From positions 186,001-250,000 of the forward strand of contig QPGO01000115.1 of NCBI GenBank assembly GCA_008632985.1: a stretch of DNA of 64,000 nt. The letters run 5' to 3'. Below are positions 2,719 to 64,000 of the stretch, one piece after another (the stretch's first letter is position 1; every line of letters begins with the position of its first letter). The position numbers were made by a program, and so were the translations under genes. The stretch is from Psammoneis japonica. Its lineage: Eukaryota. The notes under the pieces are model-generated. The model saw only the letters and a program-made list of their open reading frames with translations, made no database searches and was not told the origin of the DNA.

Positions 2719-2870
2719 CACAGCAAAGAATGGACCGAATTTTTTCTGTCCATTTTCAGTCCACTCGCGCGCATCGCGCATGGCTGGACCGATGATGGAC
2801 CCGCAAAACCAAAAATTTTTCGGTCCACCTTTTGCCACGTTCTACGATGTTATTTTCAGTCCACCAGCCC
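2719..2870. repeat. Putative DNA-transposon terminus with subterminal TGGACCGA / TCRGTCCA repeats
   Basis: Begins CACAGCAAAG at 2719; motif recurs in both orientations at ~2731, 2756, 2785, 2795, 2820, 2856; coincides with the block edge; partner end not found. Confidence 0.35.
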
Positions 2871-5249
2871 GCGCGACTTGCACGGCTTTGTTGTGTTGCT
2901 TCAACCGAATGGAAAATCTGGTTGAGGGACACGCACCCGCTTCAGCTTCCCTTGAAACCATGGTGCAAAGTGTTGGCTGTGTCTCTTTCATGGTGGCAGC
3001 CCCATTTGAGCACAGCGTCACTCACACCTCGGCCGGCAGCACTGTGAGAAAGCCCCCTGTGGATGACGACAGCACAACAACAATGAGTGGCAGCAAAGGC
3101 AGTGTGGCAACAGCTGCCATGCAGCCTCAACACCCAGCACAAGCAGCACACATGTTTTTGGCACATTTTGTCACATGGCCATGAGACCAGTCATCTGTCA
3201 TGGGGGGGGTCTCCATCCCACAATTTCCGGCAAATTTGCAACAAAGAACCCGAGGGGCACCATGTCCCTGGGGAGCTTGCTTTGTCATGCACCCCTCCTG
3301 TGACATGCACAGTTTGGTCCTATTCATGCATTGACCATCATCTCACAACACTTGCATGTGCGTGGGAAAAAGATTTGGTTCACTTTTGTTCTTTGTCCAC
3401 CACTCAGCCAGCCCACCACATGCCTGCACGACTGCTGACCACAGTTTGGCCAGATCCATGCATTGACTGTTGTGTCACACCCATGTGTGAATCAACCAAA
3501 AATGGACTCTTGAACAAAATTCAGTCCAACTTCTTCCATTTTCAGTTCATTGGATGGTGAGAGGGTGTGTGTCAACACATCACAAAAAGCTCATGTTGAA
3601 GCTTTCATAAAACCAAGAATGGGAAACACAAATGGAGAGCCCTCTGCACCACAGTTGTTGAGAGCAAAGCAATTGGATGGTGCTCAGGTGGCATGGCTGT
3701 GATGGAGACTAAGATCCTCAATTTTGCAGCTTTGGTGGCAAGAGGTGGTGTGGGAACTGTCATGGTGATGGTCATGCACTCCAACAGCACAGGGGCTTTC
3801 ACTTGACTTCTGCACACATGATGTGTGGTCATTGCTGTGCTTGCTTTGACAGCAGCCAGCAACAACAAACCACTGCCAAGCAAGCTTGCTTCAGATCTGA
3901 GTGCAGGCCAACAGCACCTGTTGTGGTGGCAATGAACAATGAGTGCGCCATGGCAAAAAGAACAGCAACAGGGCTGACATTCTTGTCAGATGGCTGTGAA
4001 TTGAGGTGAGTGGAAAAATGGTGATGACTTGAGCACTGCATGAGAAAAACATGCAGAAATCTGCAAGTGGGCACTTGCCAAAATCATGTGTGGCTCTTGG
4101 GGCCTGAAAAGCTCAGCAGCCATTGTTGTTTTCATGTTTTTTCAGTGTTTTTAAACACCACATTGTGGCAAATCTTTACAAACCTTGAAGGTCAAATGTG
4201 ACTGCCAAGCCACTTGGGAGCTGCTTGTTCAGAATTCTCTTCTCTGAGATTCTTGGACAGTTGTCACTTGAGATGGCTCACTTTGACAGTCAAGATCACA
4301 ACACAAACAGTGCAGTTTTTCACACCACAGTGCAGACCAAAACCAACGCCAAGTTGAAGAGTCACAAACAATGCACTCCATGAGTTGAACATGCTGTGTC
4401 TGTTCTTTTGGGCTGGTTTTTCGCAAGTCCCAGGCCTTCTTTGTGGTGCCAATTGCAGCTGTGTTCTTGTTCTCCTGACAAAGCTGATGTGCCCACTCAA
4501 GTTGTCAAAAACAGAAAGGTTGGTTATTTTTCACTGCTTTTGCAGTCTTGTTTGTCTGAGCAGATGCAAGTTCGACCTGATTCATTCACTCCATCAGAGC
4601 TGTGACATGCACAAGACATGGCAGAATGCAAAAATGGAAAGCAGTTTGTCTGATGCAACCAAACAATGTGGCTGTTGCAAATGCAAGCATGAGGCAATGT
4701 GGTGCAGGATGGCAGAAATGCAAATGCTGTCAATTTGTCAACATGAATGGCCTCAGCCATGTGTGTGTTTGCACACCATCCCCATTGTTCTCAACATGTG
4801 AGCAGGTGTGGAGCTTGCAACACATTGGGCACACAATGCTCAGAGCAGCCATTTGCTCATCTGACAAAAAAGACATTGGGTTTGATCAGCCCATGGTGTT
4901 GGTCTGAACAAATTGGGCCAAACTTGCTGCTGTTCAGCCAAATCAGACTGCAGAAGCAGTGGAGGGAATCAACCTTTCTGTTGACTCTACAAAGGGAAAT
5001 TGTGAGTGGCTCTGCAGATCATCCACAAGCCACCAAAGAACAACCAATCATGACACATTTTATTGTGACACACCTCAATCATTGAACTTGACTGACATGA
5101 AGACAGACACAGTGGGATGGACCACCAAAACACTGCAATTCATTTGGTCCCCACAAAACCAAGCAAGAGAAACAAAGTCAACTCATCTTGAAACAATGTG
5201 AAACATGTTCCAAGCATGGAAGCAAAACACAAACCCAAACTGCTGGCTT

Positions 5250-6300
5250 GGGAGGCAAACATGTGGGCAACATGCAACAGGTGTTGGACCTTCTTGGCAC
5301 AGAGGACCATGCCAAAACAAATGAAAGCAAAGCAAATTTTCCATCTCACCTGACCAGTCACACACTTTGCCAAAATGTCTGTGAGGTGTGTTTCACCATT
5401 TTCTTTTCCAACTCTCAACACACAGGCCACTGCTGCTTCATGAATGACATGGAAGTTGACACCATTGTGCTTCCTGTGCAAAACTAACCTCTGGGATGCT
5501 CACATTCTTGACGACACCACTGTTGTCACAGAATGCATTTGCTGGACCTCAACTGGAGCACCAAACATTTGCAGCTTGTGTCTCTCTGCAACAATCAAAT
5601 TCTTTGCAGTCACAAGAGCAACCAAACTCACTTGCAAAAGTTGTGGACTTTGCTGCATTTTGCCTTTCACTGAACCAAATTGTCAGTGCATTCTGTGCAA
5701 AGATCAACGTTCCACTGTGCAACCCACCCATTGCAACATTTCCAGCATGATTGGCATCAACAAAACACAGTGCAGCAACTGTGGGATTCATTGAGGTTTT
5801 GTCATTTTGGATGACGATTCTTCTTTGACCTCTCTGCAAAAGTCAGCCCAGCCTGCATTTGTGCTGAAAACCAATTTGTTGATCTTGGGTCTAATCAAGT
5901 CATGCCCCATCCATCCAAGATCTCATTGTTTCTTTAAATGCCTGAACACATGACACAACACCTCCAAATGACCTTCCCTGGGATTTGCTTGACAATGAGA
6001 CAAACATGAGACTTCATTGAAAATGTCAATTTTTCCAAGCTCAATTGCTCATTGACAAATTCCAATCAATTGCAAATGCCACGACATTCCATCAGGTCCC
6101 AACTTTGCCATTGCATCTAACTCCAGTTTGCAATTTAAAGGCAAGGGGTCCCTGATGTTGTTTTTCAATGCTTGGCCCTTTCCATCCTTGGTTGACAGTT
6201 CCTCAGTTCCTCAACAACTTCAATCACCTCCTTGACTCATGATTTTGAAGAACTTCCCCAAATGGTGTGATGTGTGACCATCTTGCATCTGACTCAACAT
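5250..6300 (-). mobile_element. Degenerate Ty1/Copia RT-RNase H remnant
   Basis: FVDANHAGN...IWFSERQN..STTFASEF and KHNGVNFHVIHEA...LRVGKENGETHLTDILAK match the Copia RNase H; many stops and frameshifts. Confidence 0.85.
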
Positions 6301-6949
6301 CAGCACAACAGACGCCTGCTGATTGAGGCTCCTGTTGGCACCAAACTCCAACAGGCTGACTTCTTGATGAAAATGCTGCTGGACCTGTCAACGTTCATTG
6401 GCCATCACATGTCTGTGCAGGGTTGACAACAACTTGGACATTTTTGTGTGAGGGAGTGTGAGAACACATGATGTGTTCATGTGTCAATGTGCCATCAAGT
6501 CCAAGAGTCACAAAGACCAGCAGGAAACTGCCATCAACATCTCAACCAATCACAGATCAAGCAACCCACAGGATTGGAGGTCTGGGGTTCAAAAAAAAAT
6601 CGAGCCTCACTTCTCTTCTTCTTTTGTGCAATCAAGAACTTCTCGTTCTTGACAAGTCTTTGCGCCATGTTCATCTGTGTTAATCTCAGCACAAAGACGA
6701 GTCACTTCATGTTTTCTTTCTTTTGTCGTTGGTTGTCGAGTGGCACAATTTTGGTCTCACAATTTGGAAATTGGCAAAAACGTTTCCTGCTTGACAAAGA
6801 GAAAGTGGGTGTTGTGCAGTCAACGCAGTCGTGCGAATGAGGGGCAGTTGTCGCGCGCAAGATTGCAGGCTGTGCGCGCAAAATTTGAAATGGTTGTGGT
6901 GCCGTTTTCAGGGTGGTGGTGGGTTTTTGTCAACTTCCAGGCACGACAT

Positions 6950-9400
6950 CGATGTTGCAGGTGGATGGTCGGTTGGTGTGTTGTCTGGAAGGGTGCGAAT
7001 CGGTTGGGGGGGGTCATTTGGTGTCTGCACAGGGACAGACCAGCACCGTCTTCCCACTGGGGTCGTCTGGAGCTGATGTGAGAGGCGGGAATGCGGGATC
7101 CCTGGAGGCAACGGTGAGTGCCCGGACTGTGGCAATGCTCATTCTCGCGTTGACACAGCCACATGCTTCAGAGCATGGCTTTTGCCATTTGTCTGATGGT
7201 CTCAAGGCTGTCTTGCGGAGCATTGCCTTGGCTTCTTTGCCAAAGAGTCCGTCGCATGACACTGCGAAGGGCGTGAAATGATGGCATTGCTCAAGACAGG
7301 GCTTGAGGTGCTTGCGCTTTTTCTCCCATTCGTGCATTGCTGGGACATCCTCTGGTGTTTTGGACAGGTGTGACTTCGCATCCATGTCGGGAACACGAAC
7401 ATCCGTCACCATGTCTGTCCTTCCATCCCAGAATCGCATGCTGAGAAGGTCGCCGCAATCGCCATCCTTGGACTTGTTGGAGTCAGTGTTTCCTGGGGAG
7501 CCAGTGGGGGTGCTTGAGCTTCCTGCGCTGCAACCAGTGGGGTTGATTGGAGGTTCGTCACGTACGTGGGAAGGTTTGTAAGCCTTGCCCATTGGGTCAC
7601 CCAGGTTGTCACGGACTTCATCGTGTCGTGAGATGACTGGGCTGCCCTTCTTGCACTGAAGGGCGTGGTTCATTGTGAATTTGCATCCACATCCATCGCA
7701 GTGCTCCGGGAGGTCAGGTGGAGCACTGCCATGCCGTGGGGAAAAGCGCGTCGCGGAACTCTTGGCATGAGAGTTCCGTGCCATTCAGTGATGAAGGGCA
7801 CACTGACAGCCACGCGCCTGTCTTGGTGCTGCACTTGACAGCTCTGGCCTGGAGGTCGAGTGGGGTCCTGAGGATCGTTTTGAGGGTCTCCCCATGCGCT
7901 GCAACCTTTTGATCGGCTGCTTCTTGTTTCACTTTGTGCATGGTGTCCTTGTGGATTGCGGATGAGAACTGGGAGCGGCCGCAGAGTGAGTCGATCACGT
8001 GGGAACACGTGAGAGTGCTCACTTCGTAGTTGTGAGCTGCGGACTCAGTTGGACGAGGGATGGACAGTCCCGAAAATTTGATTGGGAGGGCGGACAGGGC
8101 TGGTCTCGGGTCGTCGTCTGCTGGGGTCTCACCTGTCAAAGCCAGCAGGAAGTTGCGCTGCATTGCGCATTCTACGTCGACAAACGATTCGCCGCAGTCC
8201 TTAACCACACGTTGGACGCATTGCCACTGGTGTTGCAGGGACTTCTGCAGACCGGCGCAGGCGGTCTGAGGGTGATGAATCACGATTTTGGCGAGTCCCT
8301 GGATGACCGAGGTCCATGACTTGGCTTTTTCCGCTGGCCATTGGTCGCGCATGTCGGACTCTCCCACAAAGCCTCCGAGGCAACGGCTGCCAGACTTGAT
8401 GGTAAAGCCTGGATCTCCAAAGCATGTTCCAGCGTTTTCCAGGTTGCGTTCTGGGACTGCTGGGATGTTCTTGGAGTTGTCGGCAGGGCAGCAGCCATGT
8501 TTGGGGCCTTCGGCTCGGAGACTGAGGAAGAATTCTTGCAGTGTCGCGAAATTTCCTGCTGCTGCGGAGTCGTCGGCGTACCATGGCGTGAACACGTCTT
8601 TGAAACGCTCATTCATTTCACGGACTAGTGGAAGAAGGCCTGGTCCGCATGCCACCACACCAAGTGGATCGCCCTGCGTGACACCTTCCTTGCTGAACAA
8701 GATGAAGGCGGTTCCAAAGTTTCCACGGATGATCAGGATGCTCCAACACTTGCAATTGTTGAAGGTGAACCTTGCGCCCGATGGCCACAGGTGCCTTGCA
8801 TTGTACAGCATGAGGATCCGATTCTCTTCGTTGAATCCATTAGAGGCGTCGACAAAGAGGAAACCGCAGTCATCTTCGAATTTGTGTTGCTCCCAGAGCA
8901 GGTTCATCATGTGAACGGCACCTTCGATGCCTGCTTCTAGTCCAGCACAAAGCTGATCTGTCCCACAAGCTTCCTTGGCTTCTGCTCCAGCAACTGGGAG
9001 AACGGCTTTGGCGGTGGCTCGTTGCCACACCTCCCCTGTGCCGACCGGGCGCACGCCTGGATTTTTGTCTAGCGCGACGAGTCTCTTAGCCATGATTGCA
9101 CGGCATGCGGCCCACGGGGGGGACTCGTTTGCCAGCCAGTTCGCAAATGTGCACAACGCTTCTCCAAGCAATCCGCTGGCTTTTCCGTGACGGAGAAGCC
9201 ATTCTGACACTGTGTTGGCATCAGACCCGCCAAGTCCTGCGCCTCCGGATGGTCTCCGCGTGACGGTTTGATGGTGCCGTCGGTGATGAGTGTGTCCTGG
9301 AGTTCAGGTAGTTGCTGAATTTGTGAAAGTGGTCTTCGTCCGGGATCCTCTGGTTTGGATGTTTCTTCTGAAGGACTTGTCTTGCTTTGCCATTTTGCTC
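6950..9400 (-). mobile_element. Non-LTR retrotransposon, CRE/R2-like (RT + C-terminal CCHC and restriction-like endonuclease), apparently 5'-truncated and mutated
   Basis: ORF 7714-9210: LDKNPGVRPVG.GE, FVDASNGFN, GVTQGDPLG, WYADD; ORF 7014-7784: CDGCG..HALQC, RHDEVRD, GDLL..R..DVRV.D, EKKRKH, FTPF.VS.DG. Confidence 0.88.
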
Positions 9401-9989
9401 TCTACGGCGTAAACTGCCACAAACCCACACATGGTTTTGGCATTCGGGGTGTCTGACGAAGCTTGGCTCAAACCATCAACAATCCGCGTCTCGCCATGTT
9501 CCGCGACATCAGCCTCCATCGAACCTTTTGTTCTGTTGCCTTTTGAATGCAATGCATTGCACCCTTTCCGATCATTGCATGCGCAGCATGACGAGAGATG
9601 CCAGTTTTTTCTTTCAACTTTAATGTCAATTCCGGCTGCGTCAAGAATGAATGTGCATGTGGCGTGCTGTGCTGTGCGGGCGGGTGAAGCTCGTCAGTGC
9701 CATCATCAAGAACAACAGTTGCGGCCGCACCCACTGTTTCTGGCATTTGTTGGTGCCAAGCGTGGATGTTGCGTTGGCAGCAAGAGCAACAGGAGTCAGA
9801 ACAGTCGAAACCGATGGATTGAATGTGCAAGCGTGTGCTTTGCACCGCAAATCTGCCAGCCAAAGCCATGTTCTTGATTCTTTGTCTGTTGTGTCATGCG
9901 GGACAATGACCCTGCCTCGGCTCAGGTGCTCAGAAAGATGAGTGTGTCTTGTTGTGCTGGTTTCACAAAGCCGCACCATTGCCAACGGT

Positions 9990-11470
9990 TAGATTGAATC
10001 TGTTCAAGCACTCCCGTGTAGAATGGTCGACCCATTCGAAAGGAGGCAGTTGCTCCATGCGTGCAGTGCGGCGAGCTCGCAATGACCAAGTCTGACTCAC
10101 CAATCAGGTGCCAATCAATCATGGCCTCTGCAAAGTCAGCAGAAGAAGTGTTTCTGGCGAGTTTGCTGTGAATGCCGCGTGCGTCTGTGGTCACAATTTC
10201 TCGTGGAATGACTGTTGAACTCCATTTCCGATTGTCAGCCGGTGCACGCAAATTCGCATCTTGTCCATGACAAGAGTCGATGAACCACTTCTTGAACGGT
10301 GGCAGATCTGCAACCACCATCCACACAACCTTGGCAAATGAGGTTTTGTCATCTTCGCCACCTTTGGAAAGATGCTTCTCTTCGAGACTGAGAGCACAAT
10401 CCACTGCCGGCTGCACCACAGAGACACGGCTTGGACTCACTCCGTCATTGACATCCACAACTTTCAAACCCTTCTCAACCTGGGCAACTTTGTCAGTTTG
10501 CCCCGTTCGAACATAAATCGCCATGACCAAGGCATGTTCATCTCGAAAGAGTTGGTGGGATTCTCGAGAACAAGTCTGACTGAAACTGTGACACTGTGGG
10601 AGCTAGATCAAACAGCCCACCAATGGCGCACGCCATTCCTGTCTCTAGCTGAAAACCTGGAAGTGCCTGATGCAACTCTTTGAGCTTGTTCCGCTTTTGT
10701 TCATTTCTGGTGAGCCATCGAAAACCATCTTTGTGAAACCATCGACAATGCGGAATTAGAACCCCATCAGGAAAGTTGGGGTGTTTGGCACAGATTTTCG
10801 GCACAGACTTTGTGCAGTGGTTTTCATCATTGCAGGAAAAATTGTGCGGCACGGTCCAATTCATTGGGGCCGTCTTTGACAATGGAGCCGGCCCTGAAAA
10901 TGGCTGAAGAACGTGCCCCATTTCCACGTCTTTCCCACAGTCAAACAGAAGTCGGCAACCTTCCAGGGTTGCGGTGACATGTTCCGATGCTGCTTGAGCT
11001 GTCCATGCCGAGAGGCCTTCGTTCCACGCATTTTGCGGGCGGTGAAACAGCACACACTCCGTTTCGTGTTCTCCTGGTTCAGACAAGGTCCAACTGCATT
11101 TCTTCACAAACTGCTCTGATCCGCATCTTGGGAAGCGGCGAGAGACATGAGAAGAAGTCCCACGCCGGCTGAGCCTGAGGGTCAACTTGCACATGAGTGT
11201 GAAGCGATGATTTCTCTGAGAGAAAGACAGATGTTCCAGCCAACAACAGAAGAAGAACAACGAGATTCGGTGTTGAATGGCAGCTTCCTGGTGTCACTTG
11301 AGCCTTTTCTGCTTCGTGTTTTCTTTCTTTGCAAGAGCATTGTTCACGCTCTTCTCCTTGGACGCATGTTGTTTCGAGGTTTCTCCTGAACATTGTTGGT
11401 GTCTTTTCTCGTCGTCATTTTCACACGAAGTCAATCAACAGGCAAAAATGACGCTGGCCGTCATGTCATT
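9990..11470 (-). pseudogene. Fucosyltransferase-like (GT23/GT37/NodZ-type) host gene, disabled
   Basis: AIYVRTGQTD and EAMIDWHLIGESDLVI..S..THGATA resemble the FucT motifs H/Y.R.GD and D..LL...D....S.F; frameshifts; Tyr->Cys/His pattern. Confidence 0.55.
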
Positions 11471-14199
11471 GGCAATCCACAGAAATTGTCTGTCCCAAAG
11501 AGAGCAGAGAGCTGAGCGAGTGATCGATGGAGCGAGTGCGCAAGAATCGCAGTGGCGGTCTGTCTGTGCGGTGATTTCCACGCATGTTTTGCATTTTCGT
11601 CCATCCCTGCCACCTCCAGCCCGAACTGCCAGTGCGATTCTCGCTGATTTGCTGGAAGTGCAGAAGGGCAAAACAAGTGCACTTTCAACAAATGCATGCA
11701 CAACAGATCAAACTCTTTGTGTGATGGCAGCTTCAGAAACTTGTGCTGGCTGTGCCAATGCAGAGGCAAAGGCAGACCGGTGCTGTGGATCTTTTGGTCC
11801 ATTGCCTCCATCAAGCACAGAACCAAGCAGCCCATGCAAAAACCATGGTGATGAGCCTTGTTGAGCATTGCCTCTTCTTGCAAAAGACAATGGACAGTGG
11901 CACAAAAAAGCTGAGTCCCATTGGGCACCCATCCCAGCACCACACGCATCAATGCCATCTTCTCTGGGTGAGTCAACTTTTGGTGAGTGCTTTGTCCAGC
12001 TTGAGGATGTGCTGCGCTGACAAAGTGGTGTGACTGGGGCTGCAATTGCATGGAAGCTTCTTGGAATTAAATCCAGGGATGCAACAAAAAGCCTTGCCAC
12101 CTTCCAGTGTGTCATGATCAAGTTGACAACGTGCAACATCCAGCTCTCTGCATTTGTGGCACACAAAATCAATGCACTCCTGATGAAGATTGATTTTGGC
12201 ACCCACTGAAAAAAGACTTCTCCTTTGTCCACAACCCAAGACAGCAAGGCACTTGCACTTTCTGTTTGGTGCAGCACCTTTGGAGAGACCCAGAGTCATG
12301 GCATGCAGCAGTCATTGTGCAGGGTCAAAGAAGTTGGGGTTGTGCTTGTCAGTGTGAATGCCAAGAGGCTCCTCCTCATCTGTGGTGCCAATGTGCTGGC
12401 CAGCCATGAAGACACACCCACCCCAGAAACACATCCTGGGAATGCTTTGTCCCAGGGTGCTCTTCATCTTTGTGAGAAAATGCAGACTCCCTGTCCTCCA
12501 CAAAGTCATGCCATCATGACTTTGCACTGTCCAACAAGACACGCATGGCATTCTGGATGGTGGGATGATTGGTGTGAGGCCTGGTCAATGGATGTGCAAT
12601 GCCACACTCACTCTCAGCATTTGATGAGCAGCTGCCCCACTGGTCTTTCTAACACCCAGTGACATTGCCTGATGACAATGGGAACCATGAATGGTGCCAA
12701 GCTCTGTGGCTGGATTGGCCAATTCTTGAAAATCCATGCAATCAGTGAAAGAGCAGGCATTGTCAAGATGCAAGAAATCATTTGTCAGGAGCCAACTCTT
12801 GATGGATTGCTGTTGTGCCAAAGACTGTCAGTGCATTGGATCATCCAGAAAACAAAGCACTCTCTGAGCAAACCTGCAGAATGCAAAAAATGGAATCTCC
12901 TGTGGAAGGTGCGTGACCTTGCAAATGAGCAGCAATGTGGTGCTGTGGTTCCTGGCACACCGGAGGCATGTTAAAAGCAGCTGAGGTTTTTTTCAGGACT
13001 GCATCACAAACCCCACAACCCACACATCATTGGAAAGCTCATGACAAGCTGAATGAGGTCAAACAAATGATGATGTGACATTGATCAGAGTGAGTGGAAA
13101 CTGAATGTTTGTTGTTAAAAATGAGTTTGTCACTTCAGCAAAATCAACTGTTTGAGCAATTCTTCAAATTTTTTTTGTGTTGTGTTCAGAAATTGACAGC
13201 ATCACAAATGTGACATTTGGGTCAGAGTTCAGAATGCTCACACAGGTTTGCATGCTGTGCAAATTGCTTGAGGGACCACTTGTTTTGAGACTTTGCTCTT
13301 GCTCTGGAGCCTTCGCCATGGACATCACCAAAAATCAACTTTCATCAGTCACTTTAACTGGGTGTGAAAAGTCGATTTTTGTCAAGCTTTCATCATGTCA
13401 AAATTTTTGAACAGCTGAAACAACTCTTGGCTGCTTTTAACATGCCCCCAGCAGCACTCTCACCCTTGTCTCTCTCTGGCCACCTGCCAGCTAGAGAGTG
13501 AATTGCTCACACAGCTGTCCACACAATTCCTGTGAAGATCAAGAAGGGAGGTCATCTGCTGCTTTTTTCAGCTCAAATTTGGCCAAATGGCTTGTGACCC
13601 ACATGATTTTTCCTCAATTTTACCGCGCTTCACCGTGGTGAAGAACATCAAGCCACAAGTCTGTGATGGAGTTGGCCCATCTCTGCCAACTCTCATTCAT
13701 TTTATGTTCATTGTGTGTCAAAGGTCACATGTGCTGCACCAAGAAATGTTTGTGGACAGACTGCTGTGTTTTGGAGAAATGTTGATGCCATTGTTGTTTT
13801 GTCTCAATTGTGGTGCATGATGTTTTTCATTTTTGTGCATGATCCGGTGTGAATGTGAACAATTTTTGCATTCAAAAATTAACACTGTAAATGACCTGAT
13901 TCAAATGCCAAAGCAATTCCAGCATGAACCCACAGATGAAACCCCCTCAACTGCATGCCCAATCTGCCACACCTCTGGCAACATGGGCCAAGACAGATTG
14001 CACCACTCAGATTCACTTGGTCCCTGTGAACCAGCAACAAGAATTGACAGTTTGTCCACTGGAAACATTCTCTCAACACAACAGACAAAATGCAAGCCAC
14101 ATGTCAGCTGCCAGCTGGTCTGGCTTGAGAGGTCACAAGGCATGAACACAAGCTGCAGGCCCTGGACCTTGACAGTGGAGGACTGTTGCTGCCAAGACA

Positions 14200-15450
14200 G
14201 GAATGAAAACCACAATGGCCAACACGTTTTGCCTGTCACAAGCTTTGTCAATGGATCAGCCAAGTTCGTCTCCGCACCCTCCTTTCCAAAACTCTGACAA
14301 TTCCAGCTGCAGCTGCTTCTCTTGTCGTGTGCTGACAATTGACTGCATTGTGCTTCTTGCACAAAGCAGATTCTGGGATGCTGACATTCTTCGCCACACA
14401 ATGGTTGTCACAAAGCACATTTGCCGGTCCATCAATTGGCACTCCAAATGTGCGCAACATGCAATGGCACGCAATGCAACAATCGTGTCTTTGCAACTTG
14501 CATTGCAGCCAACTCACTGCCAAATGGAGACAATTCAACCATGTTCTGATGTTTGCTGAGCCACATGATCAGGGAGTCATTCACAAAGACAATGATGCCA
14601 GAGTGTGACCTGCACATGACAACATTTCCAGCATGACTTGCACGAACAAAGGCCTGGTCAGTTGCCGCTGGATTCTCACATGGTTTGGGCATCCTGGGTG
14701 GCAATTCTTCCTTGATGTCACAACACAATTCAGTCCAATCTGCCACAGCATCAAACACAGAAGCATCAATCTTGGGACTCTTGGGATTAAAGCCAACATT
14801 CTTCCCCTGCTTGGGTGCTTCTTCATGTGTGTGCATGTGGGTGGTGCAAAGCTTTCAAACAACCCTTCCTTGGATTCACCTGACATCAACAAAGTGAAGA
14901 CACTTCAAACAAAACATCAATGCCACCCAACTTGATTGCCCGGCATCTTGCAATGCCAACAAGTTGCAAGCATCAGGACATCAACTTGGGACTCAACTCA
15001 TCCATCACATCTGACTCTCATCAAGCTTGCACATCATTGCCAGGGTGGATCCTTCAATTGTTCTTCAGAACCTCACCATCTCCATCTTTGCTCAGCAAGT
15101 CTTCCACTGTCTTGATTGTGCTCTTCACACCATCCCTTGGTGAGCTGGTCCAAATTGTTCGGCCACTCTGCATCTGAATCTTCTCTGTCATTGCTCCGAG
15201 AAAAGTCGTGAGCAGCTCAGCTTCGCTCCCAGGCTTGATCTTGCAGCACTCAGCAGTGGACTCAACAATTGACTTTCCTTGGTGCAATGCTGTCAATGGC
15301 ATGTCATCTGTGCAAACCAGTGACATCTTGCAGCACTCATGTCCGTCCTCACGGGCTGCTGCTTGCAGGCGAATGAAACACGGCAGTTTGGTGGTCTACC
15401 CTGCTGTGTCTGTCCTTGTGTCAGCCAAGCGTCACTGTTGAGGTGTCACG
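14200..15450 (-). mobile_element. Second degenerate Ty1/Copia RT-RNase H remnant
   Basis: LVCTDD (RT YxDD with Y->C), DIKEELPPRMPKP, ASHAGNVV..RSHSGIIVFVN, KKHNAVN...REAAAAG, ETNLADPLTK. Confidence 0.85.
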
Positions 15451-56796: not shown

Positions 56797-58549
56797 GGCT
56801 GCGCCGCTTTCGGGGGTTGTGCTGTGGATTTTCACGGGTGGAACGGCCCACGGGTGACAGGACGTGCTATCGTATGTTTCTACGCAATCGCTACCAAGCC
56901 AAGCAAGCAACGGAAATTAGTATCGAGTCTGTGCTTCTACCGGTGCCAGGTTAGCCTGAGCGGAGTTTCGGGTTTCGGGAATAAGTTGGAGTCGTCACAC
57001 TCTAAGCTTACAAGAGTGTGAGTTAGCCGGGGCAGGGCCAGTTGGTCACGCACATGTGGGTTTGATCTGACCATGCAACTGGCCACACCCTGCAGGAAAA
57101 GCTGTGTTGGTGGTTGGTGGCACCACCCTGCGAGCAGAAGCTTCAAAAAGCAAAGCAGCACACACGGCGTGTGGGTCAAAACGTTGTAAAATGACATGAC
57201 AACAAGCAATGAAAAGAAACCCAACTTGACCCAGGAATGAAGAACATTGATGTTGTTCAATCACTTTGATCTCATCTGGAAATGCCTGCTTGAGGATCAA
57301 CGGTGCTCGCACATTGCTCGCCGCTGTGCTGTTGTGCGTTGTCCCAAAGCTCTGGGCCCCAACAACCCTTGAGTGGGGGTTCAAACTGGCATGGCAGGTG
57401 TGCTCCTAATGAGCACACAGACCATCACCATGAGGCTGTCATGAGAAGTAAATTTGATCAAAACTCATGCCCACGATGGTGGTTGCTGCAACGCTGTGAA
57501 AGTTGCGCAAACCTTTGTTTTTGCGAGAGTGCATTTGGCATGTTTTCAATTGGTGTCTGTCTGACAGGTGTGCAAGTGCATTCTTCACAATTTTGATTTT
57601 GTGGCAAGTTGTTGACAAAGACACCGATTCAATCATTCATGATGCAATGTCACGTGCCGATTCTTCATCCACCACCCATGCCACCGCCCCTTCCATCAGA
57701 GTGCACGATGTCGCAATGTCTGCACACATGACAAAAATGTGTTGCTGTGTTGTAAAATCCACTTGTCTGCACATGATGGTTTTTGTTGTTTGGTCAATTG
57801 TCAATCTCCTGCCATTCTTCATGTTTGAACACAGATGCTTTTTAATTTTTGTGCCCAGCCTTTTTCACAACTGCTGACGATCTTTAACGACAAGCCAAAC
57901 ATTGCAGTTGCATGCAATGAAATTTTCATCATGTAAAGTGTGCACTGATTGTTCAGTCAATGACTGTGCTCCAATTGGCTTGTTCGTCCGCATCGTCCTC
58001 TTCATTCCACATGTCTTGTCCGCTCTCTTGCAAGAATTTCAAATGTGTGCGCCGCTGCCGCGTTGGATGTTTCCTCGTCACCGTTCCAAAAAAGCCACAC
58101 TGCATTTCTTGCATTTGGGTGAACATCATCAAGAGGAAGAGGTCCCTCGAAATGCAGAATTGCATCGCTGCTCCCCTCTTGACATCGTGTCGTCTGCTTC
58201 TTTTTCCATTTCTTCGTTGCTCCACGGGGCCCTTGACGATTTGAGAAGGAAAGACGTTGCCTTGCAGCGACAGTGGCGAGCTTTGTATGATCTGTGGCCA
58301 GGCACAGATCAAATGCAGGGAGGGACATGGACCACGATCCGGGCTGTGGACGAAGAAGCCGTGGCAAGAGAAAGGGTCCTGCAGCTGGCATTGCAAATCA
58401 AGGCACAATTGGTGGCTGTCAACCAGCCTGACCACAGCGCCGACTTTCAGCAGGCGATTGTGGCTGCCAGGGAACATTTCATGGTGCAGGATGACCAAAT
58501 GGACCATGTGAGTGGACACTGCATGGAATCTGTGAGGAAGCAATTGCTC

Positions 58550-61500
58550 TAAAAATGCACACACTGTGAGTGAATGATGGATTGACATGCGCATCCTGTT
58601 TTAGAAACAAATCTGACCAACACTTCCTTCTGTCCTGTGTGGCCCAAACAAACAGGGCCTTTTCTTGCGCTTCTGCTGCTCCTGGACATTCTTCACAAAC
58701 CAAAACATTGTCCCCAATTGCTTCGATGGGGACAACACGCAACTTGGGTGGGTGCTGAGTCTTCTCAGGCGTTGACAGCCAGTTGTTTTGTTTGTGATCA
58801 AGCTGCCAGCAACCAACCAAGTCTGCATGCTGATGCCGTTGCCTCGCAGTTCTCTGGTCAGCTTGACAAGCAGTTGGATGGACAACTGCAAAAATCGATC
58901 CTGTGTCTTCCTGTTTGAAGAAACACAGCAAATGGGAGGGAAACTGTTGATTGCCCTTTCGTGTGCCAAAGGTCAAACAGGCAAAGTCATGCCATGGTCC
59001 TTCGCTTTTGAAATCGGGGTGCGCACGGCACGCATCCCTCCCGTTTGCATTGCAAAACTCTGTCTTACAAGTCAGGTGTGTGTTTTCACTGTCTTCACCA
59101 ACACAATCTTCCCACTTTTCCGACATGAAGTTTGGTGACACAGGATGAACTTGGCAATGAGTGTGCTCACTGTTCCACTCAAACGTCACAGCGCCAATCC
59201 CTCGGCTGCAGGTGAGAGTGAACGCACTTCCTCCCAGTGTGTGATTGTCCATCCTGACTCTTGATGATTCCTTTTTCCCAGTTGGCAAAATCCAACTGTT
59301 GGCTGAAATTGCGGCGTTGAGCCTCATTTGGTCCTCCATGCGCGACACGACCTGCTTCAGAAAACTGTCGAGGTTGCGTTGTTGTGTGGCAGATGATGGC
59401 AGCTTGAAAAAGTCTTTCAAGAGACACCCCCCCAAGCCTGCATCAAAGTTCATCGCATGTCGGTGATGACAAAGAAACACTGGGAGATGGAGTGTTTTAT
59501 GAAGCTTTTGAAGCTTCCACCCATGTCCTTCTGTTCGCGGGACGAATTGCACTGTCCGGTCAATGAGGAGACGGATTTTCTTGTTTATTTTCTGAACAGA
59601 TGAACTGGGAGTTACGCTTGTGATGGGTGGATCGCCTGGCCTGTGCCATGCGTGGAAGACAAGAAGGTCCTCGAGCAATTGAATGAATTGCCGGACGCTG
59701 CAGCCAAGTCTTTTTCCCTTGCATTTTTTCTTTTTTTGGTTGTCGTCACCATCCTCAGCCTCACTCTCCTCTTTCTCATCCTCATTTTTGTCCTGGTCAC
59801 CCTCTTTGGACTCCTCCGACCTTTCATTGTCGAGTCGTCCAAGCACTCACTAGGTTGGTGGCAACTCTCAAAGTTTGCTTTGGGCATCTTGCGATTCTCT
59901 GGAACAATGGGTTCGTCTGCGTCCTCGTCAAGGAAGCATGACTCACATGCGTTTCGTCCCTCACTGGTCAACAGGAGAAGGCAGAAAACAAAAGCCATTC
60001 CAGCCCAGTGGTGAGAGTTGAGGAAGGCAAGCAACATTGCTCCTCCTTTGAAGTTTGTTTGCAAAAAGGATGCTTCACAAGTTGACCGGTGATTGCTGAA
60101 AATCCTTTCCACCATGCTGTCCACCTCACTTGCGACCACAGGTGTCATGCTGTCTGCAAATGAATTGATTGCCCTTTTCAAGGTGCTGTTTTCAAAGAGA
60201 TGCATCATGTTGCTTGCTGTCACAAGGGCGATGCCAAAGTCTGCCTCAAAAAGACAGGCAATGCAAGATGCCCAACCAGTGCTTCCTTTCTTGGTCTGAT
60301 CTGTTGTCGTCATTGGCCTTAGTTTGCACTTGGTGGAGATCCAGTCCTTGGATGAACTTGCATTCAATCCATGGGTCATCCAGTTTGTTGAAGCCAGTTG
60401 GGCAAAAACGAAAGCAACGTTGACGACAGTTGTGACCTCCGCATCGTCCGACGAGACAGTCACCGCTTTTTGCGTCTCCTGTGATGAGAACGATCAGTGG
60501 GATTGCGTGGAGGCATCGCATCTCATCCCCTCGTCGCACGCATGTTTTCATGCCTCCTTTTCTCATGACTTCCAAAAGTGGCTCCAAAACAACACGCAAG
60601 CAAGTGTGGCAGTCTCTCAACGAGCGGCCCTTCTCCACCTTGCGATTGTTTGAGAGATTCTTTGCCGCAGATGACGACATCTTTTCCAAATCCGGGAGAC
60701 AACCAAGAGGTTTCCAGACACTCTTGTCTGACCATTTGTTGAAGGCAACATGCGCAGAGGTCATGATCACTGGTTCTCCGCAACATGATCCCATCCCTTG
60801 TGTCCTGCCAGTTTTGTCGAGGCAAATGACATTGCACCCGAGAAATTGTTTCTCTGGGTCAGTTGTCCGTTCTTCGCAACTGCGCCTGCACCACTCACCC
60901 ACCAAAAGGCGCTTGTCATCCAGTCCCTTCGCTTTGCACTTCCCAAAAGGATTGTCTGGATCAGCCATGTTCTCTCTGCTGCACCACAGGTGAGGATCGA
61001 GTAAAAACTGTTCCCAAACCTTTGTGAAATCCCATCTTGGCACTGACACTCGTTTTGGCAAACCGATTTTGAAATTTTTGGTTTCTAGAGTGACAGGAAT
61101 GGACTCGCTGGGTGGAAGAGGGAAATGCTTGGTTGAGGTGCGCATCAACTCTTTTCTCCTTGGCAGAACTGTCAAGCTCAATGTTGCTGTTGCCAGTGTG
61201 CCTCTCCATGAAATCAACAATGCAATCGCACAACTCCAGGGGAGCACCACGTGTGTCCATGAGCTTCTTGCACAACTCTGCGCAAGCTCCGTCAAGATTT
61301 GTCAAAGAGGGAGTAGAAGCCAAGGCCTCTTCTGCAGGAGCATCACACCTGCTCCCCAAACGTTGATCCTCATCGTCAATGTCCTCTTCCTCCTCCATTG
61401 TCACGTCCAACACTGCAGCAAAGGATTGACCACCGCCAACATCCAACTCGTTCATTGCCAAAAGTTCAACTCCTTGCATGCTGTGGTTTGATGAAATGGA

Positions 61501-61827
61501 GGACATGTCGTCCATTCCGTGCGGTGCGTCATCCGGGGAGGGGAACAAGGGGCTGCTGCTCGGATCACTCGTTGAAGATCTTGGGAATCTGCTGTGAGTT
61601 GATCGCCTGGGATGGGGCTCGTCATCATCAGAGGATGAAGAAGAAGAGCTGCCGCTTTCTTTGGGTGGCCCCTCTGTTGTGGCAGGAATGTCGCTTTGAT
61701 CTGGGACCAGATCTTGGGTTTGCAACTCTTGGGCAACTGAGTGACATGTCGGCGAGCATCTCCAATGGCAGGCCATTCGCAAAAAACTTTGGCCACAACC
61801 GGGACAGAGAAGAGGGTTTCCGTCCAT
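58550..61827 (-). mobile_element. Plavaka-like transposase pseudogene with N-terminal zinc finger
   Basis: CPGCGQSF....HW...C; GEW.RR, VICLDKTG, EPVIMT, WKPLGCLPDLE, RDCHTCLRVVLEPL, ITGDAKSGD; GWKLQKLH, NFDAG, RAHPDF...GPWHD; frameshifted. Confidence 0.8.
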
Positions 61828-62280
61828 TGTAAATCAGACAATGTTGACAGGGCCTTCATCAAGACTCATGCTCGTCGTCCTTGTCTTGTGGATGAGAAGG
61901 GAAAAAAGAACAACACGCAAAAAATGGCGGGAAATTGGCAAGCATTGCATTGTCTTCCAGATTGGGATGATTCTCACAGGTGTGGCGCATCTGCATTTTG
62001 ATTTTTTATCTGGCATCCACAATGAGAACATTGTGCTTTTTATTTGCTGTCAAAATGCAGGATGTCATCTCCGTTGAAACGCAATGACAGCCATGTCAAA
62101 AAGTGAGTTGGGCTGTTCGTTGTTGTGTGTGAATGTGTTTTCAAATTTCAATGTTGCTGACAACAACTCATGCAATGTCACAGAGAAAAATGGAGTGCCT
62201 GGCTGTCTCAACATGACCCAAACGACGGTTGCACTGTCGAACAGCACCGCTCCTCTCATTGTTGCCATGAAAAGATCAAG

Positions 62281-63560
62281 ATGTCATCTCCAGCACAACC
62301 GGCAAAGAAGAGAAAGAAAAATGAGACTGTTGAGCCAATGAGCCCGAGACTTCAGGCAGTGTTGAAGAGAACAGGTGCGCAGGCAGCGCACAGTGCATTG
62401 AAATCAGAAGTGGAGAAGGTGGCCAGAAATGATCTCTTTCCACAGGTGAAGTTTCTCAGTCCGTCTGAATTGGCAAGCAATGGGAGCGTCTCAATGTTTG
62501 TCAAGAAACAGATTGCTGGTGGCAACATGGACACTTCAAATTGGTCAGGAACTTGGGAGGAATGGGCAAAAAAGGCGGTAAAAAGGCAAACCAACAATCG
62601 CAGAAACACGGTGTGTTCGGCTGTTGGGGCGGAGGCAATGGCACGTAAGTTGAGTGACCAATGTGTGTGATTCGAGAGTTGCGTGTGTCTCACAAGAAGA
62701 TGACGGTGATGCTTTGTCCACACAGGCATTGTCACTGAGGAAGAGGGAAAGGAAAAAGAAAAGAAACTCAAGGTGGCAGACAGGAGGAAAAAGAGGAAAA
62801 AGTCAAGCCGTGACAAGAAAGAAGAGAATGACATCCCGTTTGTGCCGACATGGGATCTGTTTAGCCTGGACACTGTCGCCGGTGGCAAACGAAGGAACAA
62901 GCAGGCACACAAGTGGTTCTGTGATCACATCCTGCCTCAAACCAAGCAAAAGCAGGCATGGAGCAGCACCGTCAAAACTGGGAATGCACAGGTCTCACAG
63001 TTGTTTACGATCGGTGACAAAGCTTTGGCGCTGTTGGCTGTGGAGAATTGTTGGCAGGTGTGGGCATGCAGGAACAAGGAGGAGGCGGTGGAAGAATTGG
63101 ATGAGGAAATGGAGCCCGAAGAAACAAGGCCTGCCCCTCGGTGCACGAAGCCAAAGAAACAACGAGTGTCTTGGGGAGACAACAGAATCAATTGGTTCAA
63201 CGATTTATGCGAAGAGGTGATGAAAGACAGAGACTCCAAGGAGGGCAATGAGTTTGAAAAGTGGCACGCGGAGATCAAGAAAAGCGAGTGCGAGAAGTCC
63301 GGAGAAGCAAAAAAGAAGAAAAAGAAATCACCAACCGGTGATGCGGACAAGGTGAAGGCAATGAACAGCCCAATGGTGGAGAGCAGCAGGGACGAAAATG
63401 GCAACGACGATGAGCAGGAGGAAGGCGCAAAAGGCAAAACGGATGACGGAGGAGACGAGTCTGATGGAGACGAGTCCGATGATGATCGTTGGCTCAGTTT
63501 AAGAGAGTTGCAGCAAGAAAATGTGTGCACAGTTTACATGGCACTCGGTCATTGCACTGC
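62281..63560 (+). pseudogene. Transposon accessory gene divergent from the Plavaka transposase
   Basis: LFPQVKFL, W..W...V....NNRR, TIGDKALALLAVENCWQVW, PRCT, W....I..FN.LC..V..DR, acidic tail; no Tyr in either part except the last few residues of ORF 62773-63579. Confidence 0.55.
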
Positions 63561-64000
63561 AGACGCAACAAGGGATTGACTTGACCGATGAAATGCTTTT
63601 CTCGTTTAAGACAATGTTTGCAAAAATTGCCAAACCAAGGATTGTGTGGAAATGCAACCACGCATTGGCACATGGCAACAAGGTGGAGGCAGATGCAGTG
63701 ATGTGGACACAGTGAAAAACAGCATGCACAATTCTTGGTGAGTCATTGCAATGTTGGCACAGCAAACTTGCAACCAGAGGTTGGCCTTTCATCACATGAC
63801 AACAATGTTTTGCAACATTTTGATGAATTGTTGTCATGTAAATCTACACATTTTTAACATTTCGTGCACTCTGATGTCCTTCCCACACGTGCTTGTTGGC
63901 ACAAGGACGAACCATCAGATCCGATGAGGCAACGGAGAGCGATGACGAAAATGATGCGGTCTTGTCAGTCGCATTCGTGGATGGAGTCGACAAGGTCGTG

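Follow-up and report, generated by a model that had tools for sequence, protein, structure and literature searches.

Locally targeted TpA-to-TpG/CpA mutation of mobile-element DNA beside normal genes in a diatom nuclear locus

Why should four blocks of DNA have lost nearly all of their TA dinucleotides when the genes beside them have kept theirs? The question is raised by a stretch of 64,000 nucleotides of Psammoneis japonica, referred to here as the window. The window is nuclear DNA of a diatom rather than of a fungus, as the best named relatives of a cytochrome P450 gene lying between two of the blocks are from diatoms; the term "inverse RIP", by which a preliminary description of this DNA had labelled the pattern, is therefore usable only as an analogy. 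With high confidence, the blocks record a post-integration, locally targeted mutation of TpA to TpG or CpA in the DNA of mobile elements, which struck both strands and was accompanied by a slower decay of CpG. The preliminary description knew of no precedent; in fact, the same signature is described in a 2026 preprint on Bigelowiella natans (bioRxiv 10.64898/2026.01.13.699255), and targeted hypermutation of this rare kind has so far been reported only that once, in an alga unrelated to diatoms.

Extent and composition of the TA-poor blocks

The four blocks (Table 1), pooled, contain 177 TpA in 36,104 bp versus 996 in 24,402 bp of normal flanking DNA, so the contrast originally described between blocks without nearly all TA and TA-rich genes is borne out by the counts. 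In 1-kb windows the observed/expected ratio of TA is 0.00-0.23 over 3001-15000, 18001-30000, 34001-38000 and 57001-64000 and 0.19 in 38001-39000, with values of 0.46-0.92 in the gene regions; the kilobase 11001-12000 is entirely free of TA, within the longest gap of 1311 bp (10757-12068). The edges are sharp in 100-bp bins (from 30000 onward, TA per 100 bp runs 0, 0, 0, 2, 9, 6, 8, 8). Depletion is absent from the P450 island (15400-17700) and from 30400-34200 and 38600-57200, so that, of the span 2719..64000 first given to the phenomenon, the start is correct, the end is merely the edge of the window and three undepleted stretches lie inside. The P450 gene, some 100-450 bp from two TA-poor blocks, served as a negative control: its TA ratio is 0.55 and five of its six conserved-tyrosine columns keep Tyr.

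Table 1. Features of the window, with strand and supporting data
Feature	Positions	Strand	Basis
TA-poor block 1, composite	2720..15400	.	TA observed/expected 0.00-0.18
Reverse-transcriptase element (non-LTR-like)	7017..12066	-	ORF 7717-9303, 8393 relatives
Cytochrome P450 gene, unmutated island between two TA-poor blocks	15850..17622	-	PF00067, E 3.7e-64
TA-poor block 2	17700..30400	.	Dinucleotide composition; Copia insertion within older relics
Complete Ty1/Copia LTR retrotransposon, 7,488 bp	19791..27278	-	RVT_2 (E 9.4e-24); tblastn 20104-26064; LTRs and target-site duplication
3' LTR of Copia	19791..20066	-	Target-site duplication TGTGG at 19786-19790
MITE-like insertion in this Copia copy, 402 bp	23058..23459	.	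24-nt terminal inverted repeats 23063-23086, 23437-23460
5' LTR of Copia	27002..27278	-	Target-site duplication TGTGG at 27279-27283
TA-poor block 3	34200..38600	.	TpA 4.7 per kb, CpG 5.6 per kb: both depleted
TA-poor block 4, continues past window end	57200..64000	.	TA composition
Large transposase-like protein gene, frame-shifted	58605..61359	-	One relative, P0391 (1267 aa)

The loss is specific to a dinucleotide and conservative in its products. The TA ratio is 0.05 and 0.10 in the blocks versus 0.60 in genes, TG and CA rise to 1.46-1.89 versus 1.10-1.12, and the losses of TpA and CpG are matched by the gains of TpG and CpA. The TG-CA skew (0.008-0.045) indicates that the two strands were struck about equally, and GC content is higher in the depleted DNA, up to 0.60. 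Both AA (1.22 and 1.25 in the blocks, 1.18 in genes) and AT (0.83 and 0.88, versus 0.90) are unchanged. TA sites survive to an extent that depends on their flanking bases, from 0.585 for TTAA at the top down to 0 for ATAT.

That no mutation process acted, and that the pattern reflects native composition, GC-biased gene conversion or a sequencing or assembly artefact, is extremely improbable. Gene conversion would not be TpA-specific, in conflict with the unchanged AT and AA. An artefact could be suspected, as the sequence is known from only one sample or study and the platform of the public-read sample X1 is not on record; however, the depletion ends sharply at gene borders, unrelated metagenome assemblies contain TA-depleted relatives, and contigs assembled from public reads at a depth of about 57, corresponding to a single copy, reproduce it over 27322-29103 (10 differences) and 29105-30015 (4 differences), a check that is only partly independent as X1 may be the source sample of the window. 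The depth of block 2 is about 57-90 (single copy) over 27674-30341 and 533-1621 over 17002-19669. Since some TA-poor blocks are now at single-copy depth, and the target in B. natans is also single-copy, the earlier qualification of the process as repeat-directed is not supported.

Tyrosine loss and LTR divergence in the mobile elements

The clearest record is that of the Copia element, which has a perfect 5-bp target-site duplication and a gag-pol reading frame with only 2 stops in 1,893 codons, and from which about 90% of TpA has been erased. Conserved tyrosines, defined as columns in which 80% or more of 60 relatives have Tyr, number 43 and now read Y 6, C 22, H 11, F 3 and W 1; Cys or His thus stands at 33 of 43, as the preliminary description had perceived, and other residue types are mostly retained (75-100%). 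The active relatives carry Tyr at these sites, where a native Cys or His in active family members had been considered, and tyrosine makes up 0.5% of the window element versus 3.8% in relatives. At the second codon position, A-to-G changes affect 22 of the 43 sites preceded by T but only 6 of the 221 preceded by A, C or G (K to R 5/46, D to G 1/63, N to S 0/23, Q to R 0/23, H to R 0/30, E to G 0/36), an enrichment at TpA that had been in question; at the first position, T-to-C affects 11 of the 43 sites followed by A and 1 of 102 others. Of the other exchanges proposed initially, Val to Ala is weakly seen (4/48) and Ile to Thr is absent from Copia (0/36), with one case in five in the reverse-transcriptase element.

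These columns bear on error-prone repair, in which Pol eta-like patches in heterochromatin would give A-to-G at WA. Pol eta does have A-to-G hotspots at WA in somatic hypermutation, with TA above AA, which counts in its favour; but ApA is intact in the blocks, Lys and Asn codons are nearly spared, and transversions are few, both at Copia tyrosines (Y to F 3 and Y to N, D or S 0, versus 33 to C or H) and at the variable places across family copies (407 transitions versus 59 transversions). This mechanism, which had been among those first suggested, is contradicted by these data and is very unlikely.

The same loss was found in unrelated classes of elements, in agreement with the original observation. 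In the reverse-transcriptase element, five conserved-Tyr columns read Y 1 and C 4; its designation as a LINE is not supported, as four of six relatives scanned have an RVT_1 match and no endonuclease domain was found in them. In the transposase-like element the comparison rests on a single relative, P0391, whose 25 aligned tyrosines face Y 0, C 10, H 2 and F 7 in the window; no Pfam family was found in P0391, and the name Plavaka is not supported, as the Pfam match is weak and below threshold (E 0.0011, 18.7 bits versus a cut-off of 26.3). No recognisable protein domain emerged from a Pfam search of block 3. The affected DNA very probably comprises older relics as well as three elements, namely a Copia LTR retrotransposon, an RVT_1-type retroelement and a transposase-like element, and there is little doubt that TpA mutation has come near to completion in it, that ordinary sites have hardly changed and that the process halts within some 100-400 bp of the genes alongside.

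Set against 13 TA-normal relatives, the Copia element is poorer by about 55 TA per kb and richer by about 49 TG plus CA per kb. Among the relatives' loci from metagenomes, the TA ratio is 0.49-1.02 in 72 of 75; two contigs of a different Copia lineage stand at 0.02 and 0.06 with the same loss of Tyr to His or Cys, and a third is intermediate (0.31). The tyrosine content and TA levels of relatives, together with the LTR differences, exclude a native composition.

The LTRs of one element are identical at integration. In this Copia copy, 27 core columns differ between them, and 25 of these are changes between TA or CG and TG or CA (seven TG/CA doublets accounting for 14 columns, five TA versus TG/CA and six CG versus TG/CA), only two being of another kind; as a control, four pairs of TA-normal relatives carry 0-8 TG/CA doublets per 3.3-4.4 kb. 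Since the LTRs started out identical and now differ at TA, TG and CA, the DNA was mutated after integration and on both strands, and the differences argue that the copy was TA-rich when it integrated.

This comparison refutes, as sole cause, an editing of retroelement RNA or cDNA before integration (ADAR-like A-to-I with a preferred 5' U), followed by reverse transcription and insertion of already TA-depleted DNA. Retroelements account for two of the three elements that can be recognised, ADAR-type enzymes favour U 5' of the edited A according to the discussion of the B. natans preprint (bioRxiv 10.64898/2026.01.13.699255), and shared states are common: many TG/CA states of the window copy seem to recur in most family copies within 90% identity, and the relatives L059 and L062 have most of theirs in common. 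However, the seven doublets and the five TA versus TG/CA sites can only postdate integration, both strands are about equally affected, and depletion extends to non-coding relics and the transposase-like element and, in part, to a MITE-like DNA insertion, so this route is highly improbable. Part of the Copia depletion could nevertheless go back to a source copy that was itself already mutated. The MITE-like insertion is absent from most family copies (the joint of 23057 to 23460 is found in X1-X4) and, retaining 9 TpA, is only partially depleted.

Candidate mechanisms and known systems

The LTR, tyrosine and P450 data agree with the process proposed at the outset, a DNA-level, TpA-specific A:T-to-G:C change on both strands that spares genes. 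Because TpA is self-complementary, the sequence by itself does not reveal which of the two bases, A or T, is attacked. Neither change can create stop codons at TpA, so elements are disabled by missense and their frames stay open; tyrosine is nearly erased from their proteins, and TA-rich signals presumably as well.

Our best guess, held tentatively, is targeted adenine deamination in transposon DNA. An enzyme recruited to silenced chromatin would deaminate A following T, and the resulting hypoxanthine would pair with C; sites would be struck independently of one another rather than in long runs along a single strand. The candidate enzyme may be TadA/ADAT-like or another stramenopile deaminase. 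To our knowledge, a natural DNA adenine deaminase directed at transposons has yet to be demonstrated. TadA and ADAT2-3, as well as TadA-derived adenine base editors, deaminate A after U or T, which makes a deaminase of that fold a natural candidate, as is also argued in the B. natans preprint, although the substrates on which they act in nature are the anticodon loops of tRNA; stramenopiles also have deaminase families specific to them, of unknown role (PMC3239186). The process would be the counterpart of that in B. natans, where 230 of 231 mutations in two viral insertions of mutation-accumulation lines were A-to-G or T-to-C, the GC-biased ones all at TpA, and for which an ADAT2-like deaminase is proposed (bioRxiv 10.64898/2026.01.13.699255). 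The two cases share A:T-to-G:C transitions only, at TpA to TpG or CpA on either strand, confinement to foreign or mobile DNA in an otherwise normal host genome, and a long-term footprint of TpA loss with CpA and TpG gain; reverse-transcriptase and DDE domains are over-represented among the TpA-poor coding sequences of B. natans. They differ in the host, a rhizarian there and a diatom here, in the target, mainly single-copy insertions (integrated giant-virus and virophage DNA, TpA Rho 0.45) versus transposons at 0.05-0.10 with CpG decay in addition, and in the evidence, de novo mutations being measured there versus a historical footprint alone here. Our literature search returned no comparable TpA signature in diatoms.

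Two observations count against a deaminase. No strand-coordinated product runs were found, unlike what is known of single-strand DNA deaminases such as APOBEC, and the flanking bases that affect TA survival did not predict the choice of TG or CA at Tyr codons, although the numbers are small.

As the main rival reading, thymine could be the base attacked, a TET/JBP-type dioxygenase making 5-hydroxymethyluracil (5hmU) at TpA in silenced transposons, perhaps oxidised further, with mispairing with G or faulty repair leading to T-to-C; we regard this as possible but rather unlikely. Oxidised thymine causes T-to-C changes, and at TpA these yield products identical to those of A-to-G; the lack of strand runs would suit an enzyme acting on double-stranded DNA. 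Against this, 5hmU normally pairs with A. In its favour, dinoflagellates, which like diatoms belong to the SAR supergroup, produce 5hmU by means of a TET/JBP homologue; the mark is located mainly on repeats and has a silencing effect on transposons, and older work cited there found thymine preferentially replaced in TA and TC (PMC11572971). A TC target would lower TpC and raise CpC, but TC is 0.98 and 1.13 in the blocks versus 1.17 in genes and CC shows no rise (0.86 and 0.85 versus 0.90). Moreover, 5hmU is there an epigenetic mark, with no mutational outcome in the accessible text, the word "diatom" has 0 occurrences in that paper (PMC11572971), and our search found no report of 5hmU for diatoms.

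Whichever base is attacked, the likeness to fungal RIP lies in a DNA-level transition hypermutation with dinucleotide context, which inactivates transposons and whose strong dinucleotide footprint is fairly sharply bounded. RIP, however, converts C to T, typically CpA to TpA, so that DNA becomes AT-rich and stop codons are created; here A:T becomes G:C, GC content increases and stop codons are removed. AID/APOBEC enzymes likewise restrict mobile or foreign nucleic acid by mutation with a short context preference, but APOBEC acts on single-stranded cDNA, where it turns C into U, for the most part ahead of integration and in a strand-coordinated manner, unlike the post-integration A:T-to-G:C changes on both strands described here.

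CpG decay in the same blocks

About 15 kb of the blocks, overlooked in the preliminary description, are also depleted of CpG (observed/expected 0.11), and CpG has decayed to TpG or CpA there more slowly than TpA was lost, so that young elements lack only TpA and old relics lack both. In block 1, 2850-6400 and 12050-15350 are old relics from which both are gone, with Copia-like remnants at 5335-6177 and 14299-15017 (tblastn), and in 6450-12000 TpA is gone and most CpG is retained; in block 2, old relics poor in TA and CG (17750-19790 and 27284-30350) are split by the younger Copia. Decay of 5mC-methylated transposons accounts both for the missing CpG of the older sub-blocks and for the LTR sites at which CG stands against TG/CA, but cannot remove TpA; in diatoms, 5mC on transposons is DNMT5a-dependent (PMC9998398). 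Metagenome relatives with CpG loss but no TpA loss, such as L039 (CG 0.05, TA 0.70), show that the two processes are separable.

Near-total loss of TpA from mobile-element DNA

In 1-kb windows, the observed/expected ratio (obs/exp) of TA is 0.00-0.23 across 3001-15000, 18001-30000, 34001-38000 and 57001-64000, whereas the DNA between these TA-poor blocks gives 0.46-0.92; the pooled counts, 177 TA in 36,104 bp of the blocks versus 996 in 24,402 bp of normal DNA, likewise confirm the preliminary description, in which four blocks were said to have lost almost all TA beside TA-rich neighbors. Within the window, the kilobase 11001-12000 contains no TA at all and the longest TA-free gap extends for 1311 bp. 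The block borders are sharp, as seen from the number of TA per 100 bp, which runs 0, 0, 0, 2, 9, 6, 8, 8 from position 30000 and 3, 3, 3, 1, 0, 0, 0, 0 from position 17400. Among the dinucleotides, losses in the blocks are limited to TA and CG and gains to TG and CA. Two types of sub-block can be distinguished, a division absent from the preliminary description: about 15 kb have lost both TA (obs/exp 0.05) and CG (0.11), with GC near 0.47, and about 21 kb have lost TA (0.10) and mostly kept CG (0.72), with GC up to 0.53-0.60. In these two types, respectively, AA (1.22 and 1.25 versus 1.18 in normal DNA) and AT (0.83 and 0.88 versus 0.90) are unchanged. GC-biased gene conversion, a process that is not specific for TpA, was rejected on these unchanged ratios.

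The products TG and CA are evenly distributed between the strands (TG-CA skew 0.008-0.045) and do not occur in strand-coordinated runs: the run-test z lies between -2.1 and +2.1 in the blocks, no different from normal DNA, and is 0.39 for the series of products at tyrosine sites. An enzyme moving processively over long single-stranded stretches is therefore disfavored. The surviving TpA are strongly biased by their flanks: relative to normal DNA, survival is best for TTAA (0.585), falls to 0.28 for TTAG/CTAA, 0.03 for ATAG/CTAT and 0.005 for ATAC/GTAT, and is worst for ATAT (0). This ranking does not predict the product at tyrosine codons, and no clear dependence of TG or CA on the 3' neighbor emerged at 42 Tyr-derived sites.

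Mobile-element sequence or its relics are present in all four blocks (see table), and in the sub-blocks that have lost CG as well as TA, either eroded remnants resembling Copia or nothing recognizable is left. The best defined element is the Copia element, which has TG...CA LTRs of 277 and 276 bp (89% identical), a perfect 5-bp target-site duplication, TGTGG, found at both ends, and a pol of the RVT_2 type (Pfam, E 9.4e-24), as is characteristic of Ty1/Copia. In aquatic metagenomes its protein has 973 long relatives (about 1,900 aa), with identities of 58-69% for the 120 that were listed. A Pfam search of 144 block ORFs of at least 90 aa returned only RVT_2 and a sub-threshold Plavaka match, and relaxing it to an E of 1 gained nothing useful; tandem-repeat and Rfam scans of the window gave three short arrays and no RNA families, none of them relevant. 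The ORF of the RT element has no Pfam match of its own; RVT_1 was found in four of the six relatives scanned, in two of them above the 29.6-bit cut-off, and an endonuclease domain in none of the six, and from these sequence matches a LINE identity is plausible. The element at the end of the window had been labeled Plavaka, which is not borne out: the match to PF18759 (E 0.0011, 18.7 bits) lies below the 26.3-bit cut-off and P0391, the one long relative, has no match in Pfam, so that a Plavaka/KDZ transposase was rejected and the element is transposase-like in size only.

The sole intact gene between two blocks encodes a cytochrome P450, whose best named relatives are from the diatoms Thalassiosira profunda (59%) and Seminavis robusta (45%). 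The window is therefore diatom DNA; a fungal origin was rejected, and the 'inverse RIP' of the preliminary description holds as an analogy only. Elsewhere, in an ordinary gene region, two neighboring ORFs show an unusual pairing of Tudor and pantothenate-kinase domains, for which a link to hypermutation was not found.

Features of the window, by position
Feature	Position	Strand	Description
TA-poor block 1	2720-15400
RT element	7017-12066	-	RVT_1-type retroelement in block 1
RT-element ORF	7717-9303		8393 relatives
Cytochrome P450 gene	15850-17622	-	unmutated control
TA-poor block 2	17700-30400
Copia element	19791-27278	-	complete Ty1/Copia: two LTRs, target-site duplication, RVT_2 pol
Copia 3' LTR	19791-20066	-
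MITE-like insertion	23058-23459		402 bp, 24-nt terminal inverted repeats (92% complementary), inside the Copia copy
Copia 5' LTR	27002-27278	-
TA-poor block 3	34200-38600
Tudor ORFs	54551-56433	-	two neighboring ORFs with PTM/DIR17-like Tudor domains, one with a partial type III pantothenate-kinase domain
TA-poor block 4	57200-64000
Transposase-like element	58605-61359	-	single long relative, P0391, 1267 aa

Direction, context and timing of the changes

The Copia protein was aligned with 60 full-length relatives, and the 43 columns with Tyr in at least 80% of them were taken as conserved. At these columns the Copia copy has Tyr in 6, Cys in 22, His in 11, Phe in 3 and Trp in 1; the replacement of Tyr by Cys or His claimed from the sequence is thus borne out at 33 of 43 columns at which the relatives carry Tyr, and residues of other types are mostly 75-100% kept in the same alignment. 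Overall, the copy has 0.5% Tyr and 3.4% Cys, versus means of 3.8% and 0.9% in the relatives. Tabulated by context, as had been suggested, the changes proved to be enriched at TpA: A-to-G at the second codon position is found at 22/43 sites after T versus 6/221 after A, C or G, and T-to-C at the first codon position at 11/43 sites before A versus 1/102 elsewhere. Transversions at conserved Tyr are rare (three Phe and one Trp versus 33 Cys or His), and this, together with the undepleted AA, led to the rejection of mutagenesis at WA by Pol eta, one of the mechanisms initially considered, which should turn A into G, T or C at TA and AA alike. Compared with 13 TA-normal relatives, the Copia copy is short of about 55 TA per kb and carries an excess of about 49 TG plus CA per kb. 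The catalytic Tyr of the reverse-transcriptase YVDD motif is retained, which may be due to chance, as 6 of the 43 conserved Tyr are kept.

The other elements changed in the same manner. In the RT element, aligned with the 80 of 150 listed relatives covering at least 420 residues, Tyr has become Cys in four of five conserved columns, and in the transposase-like element all 25 aligned Tyr are lost (10 Cys, 7 Phe, 2 His). In the P450 control, about 100-450 bp from two blocks, five of six conserved Tyr are kept, the other being Phe, and TA obs/exp is 0.55. A native TA-poor composition of these elements was rejected, since Tyr content and TA levels are normal in the relatives: TA obs/exp is 0.49-1.02 at 72 of the 75 metagenome loci that encode Copia relatives. 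One locus is intermediate (L022, 0.31) and two are depleted (L059, 0.02; L062, 0.06), both with His, Cys or Phe in place of Tyr.

An insertion starts out with two identical LTRs, and any differences between them record what happened afterwards. In the Copia element, 27 of 267 core columns differ (about 10%): 14 columns form seven TG/CA doublets, 5 have TA versus TG or CA, 6 have CG versus TG or CA, one TACA/TGTG site having been classed by eye, and only 2 fall outside these classes, the other 25 of the 27 being transitions belonging to them. Each doublet represents an ancestral TA that became TG in one LTR and CA in the other. Seven such doublets are found here in 270 bp, versus 0-8 per 3.3-4.4 kb in the control pairs of TA-normal relatives (n = 4, 87-96% identical). 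It follows that the Copia element still had an ordinary TA content when it integrated, that the changes arose after integration, in chromosomal DNA and on both strands, and that TA was changed far faster than CG, and CG faster than ordinary sites; a rough estimate of the loss per LTR is about 65-85% of TA, about 15% of CG and about 0.4-0.7% of other sites. Editing of RNA or cDNA before integration by an ADAR-like activity, as the sole cause, predicts equal states in the two LTRs and was rejected on the seven doublets and the five TA differences. The higher rate at TA also accounts for the two types of sub-block, young elements being without TA only and old relics without CG too.

An artefact of sequencing or assembly was also considered. 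Contigs derived from reads at single-copy depth (about 57) reproduce the TA-poor stretches, with 10 differing letters over 27322-29103 and 4 over 29105-30015, and an artefact of assembly or base calling would have given about 100 differences; an artefact is thus contradicted, by a read check that is only partly independent, as the public run behind these contigs may be the source sample of the window. More independent support comes from the TA-depleted relatives in unrelated metagenome assemblies. The two depleted loci, L059 and L062, come from different assemblies, are 95.8% identical over 1168 bp and have nearly all TG/CA states in common, their 49 differences including three CA/TG doublets and 20 sites with CG versus TG or CA; the two assemblies probably sampled a single locus or lineage, so that the pair adds no independent mutation events. 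Six further relatives (L039, L001, L014, L007, L057 and L066) have low CpG obs/exp (0.05-0.25) and TpA that is kept (0.49-0.70, within the range of the relatives), which makes the two processes separable. In their hosts, these elements are apparently methylated, and the TpA process is either missing or has not been directed at them.

Copia-family copies differ from one another by 407 transitions versus 59 transversions. Among the 40 variable places listed, of roughly 500, the TG of the window is TA in most copies at 21795 and 26325, and its TG or CA is CG in most copies at many sites; some of the TpA loss in this copy may already have been present in its source. At 15156-15157, TG in the window corresponds to CA in a single-copy read-derived contig, a doublet that hints at recent independent events on one ancestral TA in different haplotypes or strains. 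The summed k-mer depth of the family, 58,000-122,000 versus about 57 for single-copy sequence, corresponds to roughly 1000-2000 copies, which would amount to some 10 Mb of genome; yet some depleted blocks are at single-copy depth.

Comparison with known systems and candidate mechanisms

Fungal RIP, set off premeiotically by duplicated sequence and involving a RID-type DNMT, converts C to T (CpA to TpA), turns repeats AT-rich and creates stop codons. The direction is opposite in the window, where TA is lost, GC is 0.53-0.60 in young elements and the gag-pol frame of the Copia element is interrupted by only 2 stops over 1,893 codons. A full-text search outside subscription journals retrieved TpA hypermutation only in a preprint on Bigelowiella natans, and nothing for diatoms; this 2026 preprint renders out of date the initial statement that no description of such a process was known. 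The preprint reports 231 de novo mutations for two integrated viral regions, 230 of them A-to-G or T-to-C and every GC-biased one on TpA, along with 124 TpA-poor clusters in the genome and an enrichment of reverse-transcriptase and DDE domains among TpA-depleted coding sequences (bioRxiv 10.64898/2026.01.13.699255). The changes in the window are likewise almost exclusively A>G/T>C, limited to TpA and confined to mobile DNA, with genes spared, as is seen in the normal P450 gene and in borders sharp to 100 bp. Judged from this historical footprint, the window has every sequence-testable defining feature of B. natans-type hypermutation. It is important to note the differences: de novo mutations were scored in mutation-accumulation lines of B. 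natans, whereas the window holds the historical footprint alone, and the window belongs to another major lineage, concerns ordinary transposons, is far more completely depleted and shows CpG decay alongside.

Taken together, the blocks were very probably shaped by an A:T-to-G:C process that is specific for TpA, works on both strands of already integrated DNA and is confined to mobile elements. We infer an enzyme directed to silenced chromatin, since the blocks also show CpG decay, as expected from 5mC, which diatoms are reported to put on transposons (PMC9998398). The mutation process in the preliminary description thus stands, and two of the element labels, the absence of publications and the dependence on repeats call for revision; this last is not established, given the depleted blocks now at single-copy depth and the single-copy target in B. 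natans.

As to the chemistry, TadA/ADAT-fold enzymes naturally act on A after U, and an adenine following T would similarly be deaminated in the DNA of silenced elements. This deamination is the chemistry that we prefer, tentatively and at slightly less than an even chance. The same idea is proposed by the B. natans authors (bioRxiv 10.64898/2026.01.13.699255), and stramenopile-specific deaminase families of unknown function, including deaminase-SAM-Tudor proteins, are on record (PMC3239186). The main rival, clearly the less probable of the two, is oxidation of the thymine in TpA by a TET/JBP enzyme, in line with 5hmU on dinoflagellate transposons, for which a preference for TA/TC is cited (PMC11572971). 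As TpA is self-complementary, sequence alone cannot separate adenine deamination from thymine oxidation. Opinion can be evenly divided on the broader reading, namely that diatoms possess an enzymatic genome defense converting TpA to TpG/CpA in silenced mobile-element DNA, homologous or convergent with that of B. natans and perhaps ancestral to SAR.

Consequences for the elements and local exceptions

Changes of A to G or T to C at TpA create no new stops and destroy TAA and TAG, so that the elements are disabled by missense while their frames stay open, which is the opposite of RIP. As a result of this erasure, both strands of the blocks carry long ORFs (200-900 aa) in several frames (e.g., 23413-26181, 23560-25527 and 22066-23100); most of those in other frames are spurious, without a Pfam match. 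Regions of this kind, with long ORFs and no Tyr codons, mislead gene callers and domain searches, and Pfam in fact missed most of the elements. Furthermore, dating by LTR divergence would overestimate the age of the insertion about tenfold, with about 10% of the columns differing versus about 1% at ordinary sites.

Both RIP and APOBEC, hypermutation systems used by cells against mobile DNA, act from C to T. The A:T-to-G:C counterpart was previously represented by one unreviewed preprint on one rhizarian alga, and a second, much stronger footprint in a diatom suggests that the process is no single-species curiosity and that it strikes ordinary transposons besides integrated viruses. If the broader reading is correct, this would be the first natural mutagenic defense to act through adenine deamination in DNA, or thymine oxidation, erasing about 90-95% of TpA while the LTRs gain about 1% of ordinary divergence, and never creating a stop. 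Diatoms count as some of the most important primary producers, and genetic work is feasible in several species; a search for the enzyme could use knock-outs and a comparison of diatoms that have the footprint with those that do not, and a natural, context-specific A:T-to-G:C DNA enzyme would be of interest to the base-editing field.

Depletion is not uniform within the Copia element. The MITE-like insertion, missing from most copies of the family (in all four runs, 23057 is joined to 23460), is only partially depleted, with 9 TpA kept, and may have inserted once the hypermutation was largely over. The 5' end of the element (5' LTR, leader and start of gag, 25800-27300) is far richer in TpA than the rest, with about 30 in 1.5 kb, including contexts erased elsewhere, and the 5' LTR has 8 TpA versus 3 in the 3' LTR; targeting may be weaker near the LTR promoter. 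All three TpA common to both LTRs sit in TTTAG.
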